In this document: positions 30,001 through 33,000 of the stretch, piece after piece | How the letters are laid out: every line of letters starts with the position of its first letter | How positions within the stretch are numbered: position 1 is the stretch's first letter | Virus record (IMG/VR): IMGVR_UViG_642979322_000022 | Strand: one strand, 5' to 3' | Source of the DNA: a virus | Lineage: Duplodnaviria > Heunggongvirae > Uroviricota > Caudoviricetes | DNA: 64,000 nucleotides | Position numbers: made by a program

Positions 30001-33000
30001 GCGCCTTCAAAAACTGACCGAATTTTACTCAGAATACGTTGACCCAATAACGCGACAAAAATAATTCTTTATTTTACAAAACAATACCGCCGGAAGGCGG
30101 TTTTTTTTGCCTCTTGCGCATTCACAATGTTGACATATGTTCATCTTAAGAGAACAATATATCCCATCAAAGCACAACGGTGCGACAGGTCTTAGTTCCG
30201 CCCCCCCGGCGTTAAGGGCAAATGAGGTCAACATGGATACGCTCAATCTTGGCAACAACGAATCTCTGGTATACGGAGTATTCCCCAACCTGGACGGCAC
30301 GTTTACCGCGATGACGTATACCAGAAGCAAAACGTTTAAAACTGAAGCTGGCGCGCGTCGCTGGTTAGCCAGAAACACTGACTGATGAGGTTGACGATGG
30401 AATTTAAAGATTTACCAATGCAATTCCAGGAAATGGCAGCGAATATAGTTCGTTCCCAACTGGCGACTCTTGACCTGAGTACCGTAGAAAAAGAAACCAT
30501 CGACAATATATCCCATAATGTGCGTAATTCCTTTATTAAGCTGTACGAAGAGAATCTGAGTTCTGAAAACAAAGATGATTCACCTAAATTCACCCCACAC
30601 CCAGGTGGAGTGAGTGAGATTTATCATGAAACAATGGTTAAAGCACTACGTATGCAAATAGCCGAACTTGAACATAAATTAAATTTAGTTAGTAAGTGCT
30701 AAAATCAGCACAAGGCAAAAGGGTTGCACTTTCATCATAAGGGCAAACAAAAATGTGAGCATTAGCACCAACTGAATTAGCAATAGAAAAGGTTTGTTCA
30801 AGTATTTGATTCGCATTAAGCGTTGACTGAATAACGTATGCCCCTGGCAATAATTTATATTCAATGTCACCTTCATTAATCATCCTGGAGTATTTAAAAT
30901 TTGGCATCAGAGTCTCGAACTTTTTCTCCTGTTCCATTGTTGCTTCAAATAACTGCACATGGACATAATATCGATTGATTGATTTAGAGTGCATTTTATC
31001 CTCCATTAAGGGCTGGGTTAAAAATGGAGACCAACACGCTGTCACGTGTGGTCGTGCGCCGGACACGGATAAGAATCCGGTACTGACAGTTTACTGAAAG
31101 GCTCTTTCCCTGAAAAGTCAGGGCATAACACGAAAGCGCACGGCGAAATTGGTCTCTCTGTACGGTGTCGTTAAATTTAGTTCGACCGTGCGCTTCCGGT
31201 TGTGGCAATCCGCGAAATGGCGCGGCGGTAAGTGTGGCGGGGTTATTCTGTTCCCCCTTGAGGACGCCGGGTTGTCAGGTTGACCATACGCTTAAGTGAC
31301 AACCCCACTGCAACGCCCTCTGTTATCAGTTTTCTGGTGACGTTTGGCGGTATCAGTTTTACTCCGTGGCTGCTCTGCCGCCCTTTTTAAAGTGAATTTT
31401 GTGATGCGGTGAATGCGGCTCAGCGCACGCGGAACAGTTAAAACCAAAAACAGTGTTATGGGTGGATTCTCTGTATCCGGCGTTAATTGTTAACTGGTTA
31501 ACGTCACCTGGAGGCACCAGGCACCGCATCACAAAATTCATTGTTGAGGACGCGATAATGGAAACGTCACTACCAAACGTTAATACGTCTGAAGGGTGTT
31601 TTAATATTGGTATTCTGCTCAGTAACCGGGAGTTTACTGAAGACGCCATCAGGATGAGAAAATATGAGCCTTATCTTCTCAATGATAATTCCATACTCTC
31701 CAGAATTGCCCTTCTTGAACTTGGCATTTTCGGAGGGCAGCAGTGAGTTCAGCGTTTGCACTGATGATGACGGTTTTTCTTATAACAGGTGAGCCACAGA
31801 ATGTGATTACCGGAATTTATGCCAGTAAAGAATCCTGCCATCAGGCAAGAGACGAGCAAAAAATTTCCGGTGAATGTCTCCCGTTAAACAAAGTATCGCT
31901 GTACCTGAATAACGAAATACCGGCTGGATAACCCGCCAGCCGTATTAACGCCATACCCGTTGATTAAGCATGCCAGCAATAGCAGGGATTCGTACAACCT
32001 TAAAATAGTTATGAGGTTTATCAATGAGCACTGATAAAGAAGAAATTGCACTGTATTACGAAGCCAAAAATGACAAAGTCAGAAAACGCCTTGGGATTAA
32101 AGGCGGTTTTTACTGGCGCACAGCAAAAAAATTATCGGTTGCAATATCACGGGGTGTTGTCGCAATGGACGATGCTGGATTTGACGAAGAGGATTTCAAA
32201 AAACCTGTTCGCGTGAATTTGCCCATTGTTAATGACCTGCCGCCTGAAGGTGTGTTCGATACTGAATTCTGCAACCGCTATGAAAAAGGCGGAGAAGATG
32301 GCATCACAATGATATTTATAGCGCCTTCCCCCTCAGTTCAGGACAAACCAGCCAGCACTGACAATACCAACGTCAATGGCGAAGACATGGCTGAGATTGA
32401 GGATAATATGCTCCTGCCGATTTCCGGTCAGGAACTGCCCATTCGCTGGCTTGCGCAACATGGCAGCGAAAAACCGGTAACGCACGTTTCACGGGAAGAA
32501 CTTCAGGCATTACATATCGCACGAGCTGAAGAACTGCCTGCTGTTACTGCCCTGGCTATTTCCCACAACACAAAGCTGCTCGACCCGCTGGAGATTCGCG
32601 ACCTTCACAAACTGGTACGCGACACAGACAAAGTTTTCCCTAATCCCGTTAATTCCAGTCTGGGGTTAATGACTGCTTTTTTCGAAGCATACCTGGACGC
32701 TGACTATACCGATCGAGGTCTGCTGACAAAAGAGTGGATGAAAGGAAATCGTGTTTTACGCATCAGCCGCACGCCATCCGGCGCTAATGCTGGCGGAGGA
32801 ATTCTTACCGATCGCGGTGAAGGTTTTGTCCACGATGATGCGTCAGTGGAACGTGACGTTGCCGCTGGCGTTCTGGCCCGTTCAATGGACATCGATATTT
32901 ACAATCCACATCCGGCACACGCCAAACGCATTGAAGAAATCGTTTCAGATAATAAGCCGCCCTTTTCTGTTTTTCGTGACAAATTCATCGCCATGCCTGG

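Follow-up and report, generated by a model that had tools for sequence, protein, structure and literature searches.

A dicF locus and an opposite-strand YmfI-family gene in the early-left operon of a Qin-type prophage of Escherichia coli O157:H7

The interval described by a first-pass annotation as a single element, an opposite-strand open reading frame (ORF) with a structured intergenic region, joins two unrelated features of the same early-left operon: the dicF gene, and an ORF transcribed against the operon that is a real gene for a protein of the YmfI family. Considering these together, we think it a little better than an even chance that this is a dicF locus carrying a YmfI-family cargo gene, wired as an excludon with its convergent neighbor and encoding a GhoS-like protein that acts on RNA.

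Prophage identity and early-left operon

The stretch of DNA analyzed here (the window, 64,000 nucleotides) is 100% identical to several E. coli O157:H7 chromosomes and, judged from its sequence, is a Qin/dicBF-type lambdoid prophage located at ompW. The O157:H7 chromosome annotation lists dicB, DUF1391 and DUF1482 genes at this locus, and the identity search that gave the O157:H7 matches found the dicF/dicB segment in 4634 genomes. The order of genes (Table 1), with a DicA-like HTH repressor followed by a promoter and then a ydfA-like gene, is syntenic with the dicA-ydfA...dicF-dicB-ydfD arrangement of K-12. The −35 element of the promoter is conserved in alignment with that of K-12 dicBp upstream of ydfA, and dicBp is the sole promoter of the K-12 dicBF operon (PMC10448788). 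The promoter lies on the plus strand, and the ORF was thus correctly described as running against the flow of the early-left operon. The terminator-like hairpin beyond the 3′ end of the repressor gene consists of ACCGCCGGAAGGCGGT and a T-run on the plus strand; read on the minus strand, its stem runs into ATTGTTTTGT. No other terminator-like site lies beyond the YmfI-like gene on the minus strand.

Table 1. Features of the early-left region, in window coordinates.
Feature	Position	Strand	Remarks
DicA-like repressor gene	29675-30064		
Bidirectional terminator-like hairpin, 3′ of the DicA-like repressor gene	30086-30101	both	
Early-left promoter, dicBp-equivalent, TTGACA-17-AACAAT	30130-30158	+	10/12 matches
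ydfA-like DUF1391 gene, first early-left gene	30233-30385	+	Pfam PF07151, E 1.7e-27; PGAP WP_000380323.1
YmfJ-like gene	30397-30702	+	Convergent with YmfI-like gene
YmfI-like gene, 101 aa	30689-30994	-	ATG 30994-30992, stop 30691-30689
Shine-Dalgarno GGAGGA of YmfI-like gene	30999-31004	-	4 nt before ATG
Leader hairpin ACCACACG-TGACAG-CGTGTTGGT	31030-31052	listed as -	Boundary of cargo slot and dicF precursor
Conserved 5′ precursor of DicF, non-coding part of dicBF transcript	31053-31330	+	
DicF sRNA	31331-31383	+	Rfam RF00039
Structured dicF-dicB spacer and dicB 5′ UTR	31381-31590	+	
dicB, cell-division inhibitor gene	31558-31746	+	Pfam PF05358, E 7.4e-34; PGAP dicB
ydfD-like DUF1482 gene	31743-31931	+	Pfam PF07358, E 1.8e-14

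The dicF gene and its precursor

The non-coding stretch had been placed after the ORF, and a search of it for a structured RNA had been suggested. On the strand of the ORF, however, the stretch lies upstream, and its structures are on the plus strand; they are therefore not the terminator or 3′ region of the ORF. The gap does lack protein genes, but it ends at the start of dicB (30995 to 31557) and not at 31450, and it is not free of genes, as it holds dicF and its precursor. The covariance search returned the known DicF RNA on this other strand, with a score of 75 bits (gathering threshold 48; E 6.3e-16) over model positions 1-52 of 52. The sequence aligns to the annotated K-12 dicF with one mismatch and lies between a DicA-controlled promoter and dicB, the setting of a dicBF-type operon; by these matches the plus strand of 31053-31388 is identified as the dicF gene together with its conserved 5′ precursor. 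The reported GGCGG...CCGCC element with a T-run also exists, although the interval originally given for it (31370-31395) covers the 3′ half only: the stem is formed by 31346-31350 and 31378-31382 with T5 at 31384-31388, and the element is DicF's own Rho-independent terminator.

The precursor region is 90-98% identical to K-12 Qin across 31055-31560. In K-12, RNase III yields a DicF species of 190 nt and RNase E one of 53 nt (PMC10448788). Counted back from the DicF terminator of the window, a 190-nt RNA would start at about 31194-31199, within the 3′ arm of a long stem (about 31131-31143 / 31186-31198; −26.7 kcal/mol, z −2.98), which would span the RNase III cut. The conservation of this stem and the sequence identity suggest that DicF is processed likewise here. 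The 9-bp hairpin that had been noticed, GGGTTGTCA/TGACAACCC, is also real, but its arms are at 31269-31277 and 31297-31305, inside the 190-nt precursor, and not within 31273-31310 as first placed. It folds with −14.9 kcal/mol (z −2.46; 2 of 200 shuffled sequences fold as well) and is invariant in 91 distinct sequences, which offer no variation from which covariation could be scored. Further downstream, the dicF-dicB spacer and dicB leader give a sub-threshold match to Rfam STnc100 (37.4 bits versus 47, E 9e-6), and the spacer contains a 17-bp long-range inverted repeat (31395-31411 / 31522-31538), the K-12 counterpart of which has one C-to-T change in each arm, both still pairing as G.U.

The locus thus shares with K-12 Qin dicBF the full-length covariance match, the place upstream of dicB, the terminator, and the conserved precursor of about 280 nt with the long stem across the putative RNase III cut. 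It differs in that K-12 Qin has sense-strand ydfB and ydfC genes between ydfA and the precursor, a place occupied in the window by the YmfJ-like sense gene and the antisense YmfI-like gene; K-12 YdfC was considered as a counterpart of YmfJ and set aside, as the two have no similarity. Multiple dicF copies are already known in EHEC, and the DicF described here is one of these and adds nothing new.

The opposite-strand gene is a member of the YmfI family

The same coding sequence is called by PGAP (WP_000555741.1), and both the GGAGGA Shine-Dalgarno sequence and the AT-richness attributed to the ORF are borne out, with a GC content of 0.34-0.365 over 30500-31000 versus 0.45-0.545 in the flanks. 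Homologues in E. coli, Salmonella, Edwardsiella and Scandinavium retain the reading frame; synonymous divergence is saturated, dN is 0.26-0.59, and dN/dS is 0.17-0.47 where measurable, the pattern of a gene under purifying selection. No family had been recognized for the protein at first, but it matches the full NCBIfam profile YmfI_phage (NF051477) with 107.1 bits (E 4.9e-31), below the curated equivalog cutoff of 140, which places it as a clear YmfI homologue but outside the equivalog set. It also matches phrog_8894 (E 1.5e-35) and shares 55% identity over 92 residues with YmfI of prophage e14.

The YmfI family is small, uncharacterized and restricted to the Enterobacterales, from which all of its 40 clusters (at 90% identity) derive. 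The allele of the window is present in 65 of 5426 complete E. coli genomes; scans for YmfI-like genes found only six loci in viral contigs and only three in species-representative genomes, and a tblastn search of 50,697 sequenced phage genomes gave zero matches. A Pfam search with the window protein returned nothing at E≤1, and a PDB sequence search with the family profile found nothing. Two long repeat proteins (P0009 and P0010) appeared as candidate remote homologues and were judged spurious, since a short beta-strand motif was matched repeatedly.

The closest described relative is e14 YmfI (b1143), and the two loci have the same order, in which the repressor is followed by a YmfJ-like gene converging on a YmfI-like gene, then the early-left genes, xis and int; the 3′ overlap with a YmfJ-type C-terminal tail is also shared. 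There are several departures. First, the window protein lacks a 17-residue C-terminal extension (GNDFVH.DLTPKP.KLDS) and has five additional N-terminal residues. Secondly, the leaders differ, that of the window being without the TGgTATGCT extended −10 of e14 ymfI. Thirdly, the window gene is embedded in a dicBF operon, whereas ymfI lies in e14.

A predicted GhoS-like fold

Structure prediction points to a relationship beyond the YmfI family. The AF2 model of the window protein (pLDDT 78.5, pTM 0.65), which is one AlphaFold model built on a shallow alignment of 25 sequences, matches GhoS in Foldseek (E 1.9e-4, TM 0.75) with Cas2 proteins next (E about 1e-2); a search of the BFVD viral fold library gave no significant match. 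We infer that the protein has a GhoS-type ferredoxin-like fold. GhoS (YjdK; PDB 2LLZ; PF11080), an endoribonuclease that serves as the antitoxin of the type V GhoT/GhoS system, is of similar size (98 aa versus 101 aa) and has the Cas2-related ferredoxin-like strand/helix fold that is predicted here. The fold match to Cas2 itself is far weaker than that to GhoS, and the window protein lacks both a cas1/CRISPR context and the conserved N-terminal Asp. To our knowledge no type V antitoxin other than GhoS has been described, and GhoS itself is very narrowly distributed.

At the sequence level the connection runs through a bridging relative, a 94-aa protein (L110, 3715-3999) whose gene occupies the same slot and follows the same leader. 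This protein matches YmfI_phage (E 6.8e-13) and phrog_8894 (E 5.6e-23), its profile aligns with the YmfI alignment at a probability of 83%, and it only just reaches the Pfam GhoS threshold (PF11080; 21.2 bits versus 21), such that it marginally appears to connect YmfI and GhoS. Direct similarity between the window protein and GhoS is not detectable: among 25 YmfI family members Pfam GhoS gave one match (E 0.041), and hhalign comparisons of the family with E. coli GhoS in local, low-mact and global modes gave a probability of about 1%, also when the bridging protein was added. The residue reported as most important for GhoS catalysis is Arg28 (PMC4010927). In a low-confidence alignment, based on hydrophobic register and a low-scoring hhalign result, this position pairs with a nearly invariant Glu27 in the YmfI family and with His22 in the 94-aa relative, Arg26 corresponding to Lys25; the key GhoS arginine thus seems not to be conserved in the YmfI family.

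The genetic setting also differs from that of ghoS, the window gene being prophage-borne, antisense to an operon, and convergent with a gene for a different protein. No ORF for a GhoT-like (PF10753) small membrane toxin was found downstream on the minus strand, and the YmfJ-like protein has no Pfam GhoT match. A hydrophobic alternative-frame ORF (30685-30876, minus strand) was considered as a hidden GhoT and rejected, as the frame is interrupted by stops in the e14, Salmonella, Edwardsiella and L015 homologues.

The convergent YmfJ-like partner

The YmfJ-like and YmfI-like coding sequences converge with a 14-nt overlap, and both the convergent 3′ overlap and the synteny are kept in the e14, Salmonella, Edwardsiella and E. 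coli loci. The overlapping end of the YmfJ-like gene encodes a C-terminal helix (about 30589-30699, ...VSEIYHETMVKALRMQIAELEHKL...), predicted for residues 72-98 in a low-confidence model, and this C-terminus is related to that of e14 YmfJ (E 3e-8). The YmfJ-type tail is conserved in six loci with differing N-termini, and its motif is present in all three YmfI-bearing dicF loci and in none of 109 other dicF loci; overall, the tail accompanies YmfI-like genes at 8/8 loci versus 0/109 without them. Synonymous differences in the tail (pS 0.7-0.9) exceed nonsynonymous ones (pN 0.2-0.3), a pattern of selection at the protein level, and the helix belongs to the YmfI cassette.

Expression and a putative excludon

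The expression data are limited to the e14 gene, which is 55% identical to that of the window. Transcripts of e14 ymfI are detectable in uninduced K-12, and ymfI-ymfJ is part of the MG1655 core excludome compiled from 58 stranded RNA-seq sets (PMC12288877). Late in the SOS response the ymfJ mRNA and protein rise and ymfI far less so (PMC11002266). That e14 ymfI is listed as an 'SOS gene' is accounted for by its control via the CI-like repressor. For the YmfI-like gene of the window only weak sigma-70 promoter candidates were found, with none convincing in the leader; one returned by promoter prediction (TTAACC-17-TAAAAT) overlaps the start codon. Among the leaders compared, the extended −10 TGgTATGCT is present only upstream of e14-type ymfI, and no LexA box was seen by eye within 30995-31110. 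The locus resembles the ymfI-ymfJ and sieB-ydaF excludons of E. coli K-12 in its convergent, overlapping coding sequences and in the core-excludome membership of its e14 homologues, for which alone transcript overlap is known, and differs from them in that one partner lies in a repressor-controlled lytic operon.

In the reading that we favor, the YmfI-like gene is probably transcribed alone while the repressor keeps the early-left promoter off, and its mRNA would extend head-on into the YmfJ-like gene, which would make an excludon of the pair: with polymerases colliding and RNase III cutting the duplex, the more strongly transcribed strand would silence the other. Going only by its predicted fold, the YmfI-like protein would be a small RNA-binding or RNA-cleaving protein, and it may act post-transcriptionally on the early-left transcript or on the YmfJ-like product. 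The outcome would be a GhoS-like 'antidote' without GhoT that limits leaky early-left expression in the lysogen. Convergent transcription could be a further means of controlling the toxic DicF/DicB operon of pathogenic E. coli; the predicted fold provides a first structural and functional lead for the uncharacterized YmfI family, including a K-12 y-gene, and suggests that GhoS has prophage-borne relatives working without GhoT.

A hypervariable antisense slot

The proposal that the ORF occupies a moron-type position holds up well, as 50 of 112 dicF-carrying viral contigs have an antisense gene preceded by a Shine-Dalgarno sequence at exactly this place; the other 62, like K-12, have none. At least 12 unrelated families are found here among the 112 dicF loci, behind shared leaders, and we infer that the YmfI-like gene is cargo in a hypervariable antisense slot. 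Its presence or absence among related phages and its atypical base composition are those of a moron, and it resembles the lambdoid morons (lambda rexAB and sieB; P22 sieA/sieB) in these respects as well as in its place adjoining the immunity region; it differs in that the protein has no relationship in sequence or fold to any of them.

The gene could thus be a classical lysogenic-conversion moron, which protects the lysogen through superinfection exclusion or abortive infection, or counters host defense; a variant is that a GhoS-like RNase is itself the effector and cuts the transcripts of incoming phages. We regard this as an unlikely reading, albeit one to be weighed seriously. Many unrelated alternative genes in one slot, here including one for a 106-aa membrane protein, are the usual signature of accessory or defense cargo, and the gene combines AT-richness and opposite-strand orientation with a strong Shine-Dalgarno sequence of its own. 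The uninduced e14 ymfI transcripts also fit, as does the neighboring dicB, which excludes ManYZ-dependent phages (PMC10448788). PADLOC, however, matched neither the window protein nor 10 other cargo proteins, the phage genomes searched contain no homologue, and the strict coupling of the YmfJ tail to YmfI argues for a target within the prophage and not outside it.

That coupling is also the basis for a second alternative, to which we give slightly less credence, in which YmfI is a non-nuclease protein partner (an antidote, chaperone or regulator) that binds the C-terminal helix of the YmfJ-like protein. Such an arrangement resembles a type II toxin-antitoxin or regulator pair split across convergent genes, and would account for the co-occurrence of the tail with YmfI-like genes, although this could merely reflect cassette boundaries because the genes overlap. 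The tail is conserved as protein although the DNA is only 55-70% identical, it is predicted as a long helix, the YmfJ protein is made upon SOS induction, and the GhoS Arg28 is seemingly replaced by Glu; against this, the 94-aa relative, which is more GhoS-like, is paired with a gene lacking the YmfJ tail.

That the ORF is non-functional with antisense transcription alone mattering, or that the stretch is a new structured RNA or a terminator of the ORF, is very improbable and largely refuted here: although the ORF is short and lacks a Pfam domain, excludon logic is workable with RNA alone, and the region has a more stable fold than shuffled controls (z −2.8), the frame and protein are conserved across genera with synonymous sites saturated, the Shine-Dalgarno sequence is strong, AF2 gives a confident compact fold, and the structures, upstream of the ORF and on the other strand, are accounted for by DicF and its precursor.

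Extending the favored reading of a GhoS-like, RNA-acting cargo protein, we speculate, with more doubt than attaches to either the moron or the partner explanation, that YmfI-like proteins and the YmfJ C-terminal helix constitute an unrecognized two-gene prophage module divided between convergent genes that overlap. In this, the lysogen would make a protein derived from GhoS that cleaves or binds RNA, and this protein would neutralize the transcript or protein of a harmful early-left gene made on induction. If true, the module would amount to a type V toxin-antitoxin system in a GhoT-less, excludon-wired form, and would be one among many interchangeable cargos located in the antisense expression slot of dicBF/e14-type prophages.

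In these prophages, unrelated small genes are exchanged at a defined antisense position that is retained together with conserved leaders and is a convenient place for finding new lysogen-expressed functions. The same leader and Shine-Dalgarno sequence (AATGGAGGATAAAATG) precede unrelated cargo genes at other loci. The leader hairpin at the boundary with the DicF precursor folds with −14.3 kcal/mol (z −3.1), and all three leader types, like K-12, have a CCAC...GTGG hairpin at this junction.

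Organization of the early-left region

Several E. coli O157:H7 and other STEC strains carry the 1.6-kb segment around the ORF at 100% identity on their chromosomes, where it sits within a lambdoid prophage adjoining a truncated ompW. The gene order (see table) matches that of the dicBF operon in Qin, a cryptic prophage of K-12 (dicA, ydfA, ydfB, ydfC, dicF, dicB, ydfD), and the -35 of the promoter following the repressor gene aligns with K-12 dicBp; thus the early-left operon is read rightwards, on the + strand, with the ORF opposed to it, as the first-pass annotation proposed. 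The repressor is a DicA-like HTH protein that lacks an S24 peptidase domain, so that induction probably depends on an antirepressor, as that of Qin does on Rem, and not on RecA-mediated cleavage.

Features of the early-left region and of compared loci (L-numbers; L003 is K-12)
Feature	Coordinates	Strand	Remarks
Replication, ydaT-like and cro-like genes		-	left end of gene order
DicA-like HTH repressor	29675-30064	+	129 aa
Terminator	30086-30101
Promoter	30130-30158	+	TTGACA-17-AACAAT
ydfA-like DUF1391 gene	30233-30385		between promoter and YmfJ-like gene
YmfJ-like hypothetical gene	30397-30702	+	101 aa
Conserved tail of YmfJ-like gene	30589-30699	+	L004 5780-5900 (-); also L014, L015, L017, L011
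ORF (YmfI-like)	30689-30994	-	ATG 30994-30992; GGAGGA 31004-30999
CDS-free stretch			about 560 nt, between ORF and dicB
Hypervariable slot	30995-31060		other loci L019-L137, e.g. L002 3432-3632, L110 3715-3999, L019, L027, L029, L031
CCAC...GTGG leader hairpin	31030-31052		L003 about 2075-2100; L004 5437-5457
Long stem	about 31131-31143 / 31186-31198		-26.7 kcal/mol, z -2.98
Apical hairpin of long stem	31148-31184
9-bp hairpin	31269-31277 / 31297-31305		-14.9 kcal/mol, z -2.46
DicF (Rfam)	31332-31383	+	75 bits (gathering score 48), E 6e-16
DicF, 53 nt (K-12 alignment)	31331-31383		one mismatch
GGCGG/CCGCC stem with T-run	31346-31388
dicF-dicB spacer	31381-31590
17-bp inverted repeat	31395-31411 / 31522-31538		brackets dicB 5' UTR
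Promoter-like site	31466-31493	-	TTAACA-16-GAGAAT
dicB	31558-31746
DUF1482/ydfD-like gene, 814-aa exonuclease-like protein, xis, int			3' of dicB, in this order

The ORF belongs to the YmfI family

The ORF, its start codon, its Shine-Dalgarno sequence and its AT-richness (GC 0.34-0.365 versus 0.45-0.545 in the flanks) are all confirmed. Its reading frame is maintained over a range that runs from E. coli to Edwardsiella; dN is 0.26-0.59 with synonymous sites saturated, and dN/dS is 0.17-0.47 where measurable. These sequence comparisons show that it is a genuine gene, and we reject the alternative that it is spurious. The product matches neither Pfam nor PADLOC and had been thought to have no recognizable family; it does, however, match the NCBIfam 'YmfI family phage protein' model (E 5e-31; its 107 bits fall short of the equivalog cutoff, 140) and phrog_8894 (E 1.5e-35), and shares 55% identity with YmfI of prophage e14. 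The ORF adds a new and divergent member to this named but uncharacterised family. The family is small: 1.84 billion proteins yield 8 representatives at 50% identity, and the 40 clusters at 90% identity all come from Enterobacterales. Only three loci occur among GTDB species representatives and none in 50,697 sequenced phage genomes; of 5426 complete E. coli genomes, 65 have the window's allele.

The intergenic structures are those of DicF

The non-coding half of the region is biology already known. What had been described as a structured intergenic region of the ORF is DicF and its precursor, encoded on the opposite strand, and we therefore reject it as part of the ORF; 31055-31560 is 90-98% identical to Qin throughout. 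Together with the Rfam placement, this identity indicates that the terminator-like stem is the Rho-independent terminator of DicF itself. The stem and the 9-bp hairpin both exist, the former extending beyond the span first reported, which covered its 3' half only, and the latter lying a few bases from its reported position.

In K-12, DicF is processed out of the polycistronic dicBp transcript, which has no internal promoter for it, with RNase III generating a 190-nt RNA and RNase E the 53-nt DicF (PMC10448788). Counted back from the DicF terminator, a 190-nt RNA would start at about 31194-31199 in the window, within the 3' arm of the long conserved stem, and this stem would fit an RNase III site. 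The 9-bp hairpin lies within the 190-nt precursor. It is invariant in 91 distinct versions of the region taken from viral contigs, so that covariation speaks neither for nor against it; the DicF terminator is also conserved. In the long stem, conservation is seen in the basal part, which spans the inferred RNase III cut; the apical hairpin is highly variable among prophages, with indels and compensatory GC-to-CG swaps.

A variable antisense slot upstream of dicF

Among 112 dicF-bearing viral contigs with sufficient upstream sequence, 62 are K-12-like without an antisense gene, and 50 carry a Shine-Dalgarno-preceded antisense gene directly upstream of the dicF precursor. These cargo genes belong to at least 12 unrelated families and encode proteins of 61, 64, 66, 69, 73, 77, 91 and 92 aa, a 106-aa membrane protein, a YmfI-like protein and a 94-aa GhoS-like protein. 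They lie behind three conserved leader types. First, the window-type leader, a hairpin followed by AATGGAGGATAAAATG, is common to five unrelated cargos, and no convincing promoter was identified in the window's copy. Secondly, a remnant of another type is left in K-12 Qin with no cargo behind it. Thirdly, the e14-type leader contains a plausible extended -10 promoter (TTTTCA-18-TGgTATGCT). The CCAC...GTGG hairpin at the junction with the dicF precursor is found with all leader types and in cargo-less K-12; in e14-type loci it falls between the putative -35 and extended -10 of ymfI. None of the cargo proteins is in PADLOC or of known function. For the ORF protein, a lysogen-protecting exclusion or defence function is less likely than the RNA-directed role suggested below.

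A probable structural relationship to GhoS

An AlphaFold2 model of the ORF product built from a 25-sequence alignment (pLDDT 78.5, pTM 0.65) predicts a ferredoxin-like fold in which two helices are combined with five strands, strands 2 and 3 forming a hairpin. Foldseek searches with this model identify GhoS (E 1.9e-4, TM 0.75), followed by a cluster of Cas2 proteins (E about 1e-2); GhoS, the antitoxin in the type V GhoT/GhoS system, is an endoribonuclease and has been described as Cas2-like (PMC4010927). Direct profile comparison gives no match between the YmfI family and E. coli GhoS. A bridging 94-aa protein beginning MAKFTVRIELRD is encoded on the - strand of locus L110, in the same slot and behind the same leader as the ORF; it matches the YmfI HMM (E 6.8e-13), phrog_8894 (E 5.6e-23) and the YmfI alignment (hhalign probability 83%), and just reaches the threshold of Pfam GhoS PF11080 (21.2 bits against 21, E 2.8e-4). 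From the fold match and this protein we conclude that the YmfI family probably belongs to the GhoS fold family as a divergent branch carried by prophages, for which the structural evidence is good and the sequence evidence marginal. The model-based link is credible and new, in that we found no paper linking YmfI to GhoS. Of the features that define the type V system, one is missing, as no GhoT-like toxin gene was found at the ORF, and a second seems to be: Arg28, reported as the key catalytic residue of GhoS (PMC4010927), corresponds by hydrophobic register, in a low-confidence alignment, to a nearly invariant Glu27 of the YmfI family.

A convergent YmfJ-like partner

A convergent gene of 95-137 aa enters from the repressor side, with overlapping 3' ends, at all the YmfI-bearing loci examined: those of the window, e14, Salmonella, Edwardsiella, Scandinavium and a further E. 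coli prophage. The partner proteins differ in their N-terminal domains and have in common a C-terminal segment, TPxPCxG..VSRVYHDTMVKALRIEI..L, present in all three YmfI-bearing dicF loci and in 8 of 8 loci with a convergent YmfI-like gene, compared to none of 109 other dicF loci. The tail is under purifying selection at the protein level (pS 0.7-0.9 versus pN 0.2-0.3) with nucleotide identity of only 55-70%. Confined and constrained in this way, it is part of the YmfI cassette, and it is probably functionally tied to YmfI. A low-confidence single-sequence model predicts a long helix, and this C-terminal helix (YHD/ETMVKALR) appears grafted onto otherwise different early-left proteins; the partner of the L110 protein lacks the tail and consists of a YmfJ N-domain of 51 aa. 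A purely protein-protein role of the ORF product with the YmfJ tail is likewise less likely than the RNA-directed role suggested below.

The e14 ymfI-ymfJ pair is one of the core convergent excludons, those detected in half or more of 58 stranded MG1655 RNA-seq data sets (PMC12288877). In e14, ymfJ mRNA and YmfJ protein are strongly up at a late stage of the SOS response and ymfI changes much less (PMC11002266); older array studies detected transcripts of ymfI without induction. For e14 only, the convergent transcripts are shown to overlap and the partner to be induced on derepression. What the present analysis establishes is dicF with its precursor, a conserved protein-coding gene of the YmfI family, the variable slot and the co-inherited tail. 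In the repressed prophage the antisense gene is probably expressed, its transcript opposing the promoter-proximal part of the early-left operon; once the prophage is induced, the strong early-left promoter would prevail. Judging from its predicted fold, the ORF protein may bind or cleave RNA like GhoS, with the early-left transcript or the YmfJ-like product as suggested target.

The dicF-dicB spacer

Rfam STnc100 matches the spacer below threshold (37.4 bits versus 47), and the spacer contains a perfect long-range inverted repeat. K-12 has one C-to-T change in each arm, with pairing kept as G.U in both, which suggests a conserved RNA structure controlling dicB. The promoter-like site between dicB and dicF, identified by consensus match, would if active produce an RNA antisense to DicF, with possible read-through into the cargo gene.
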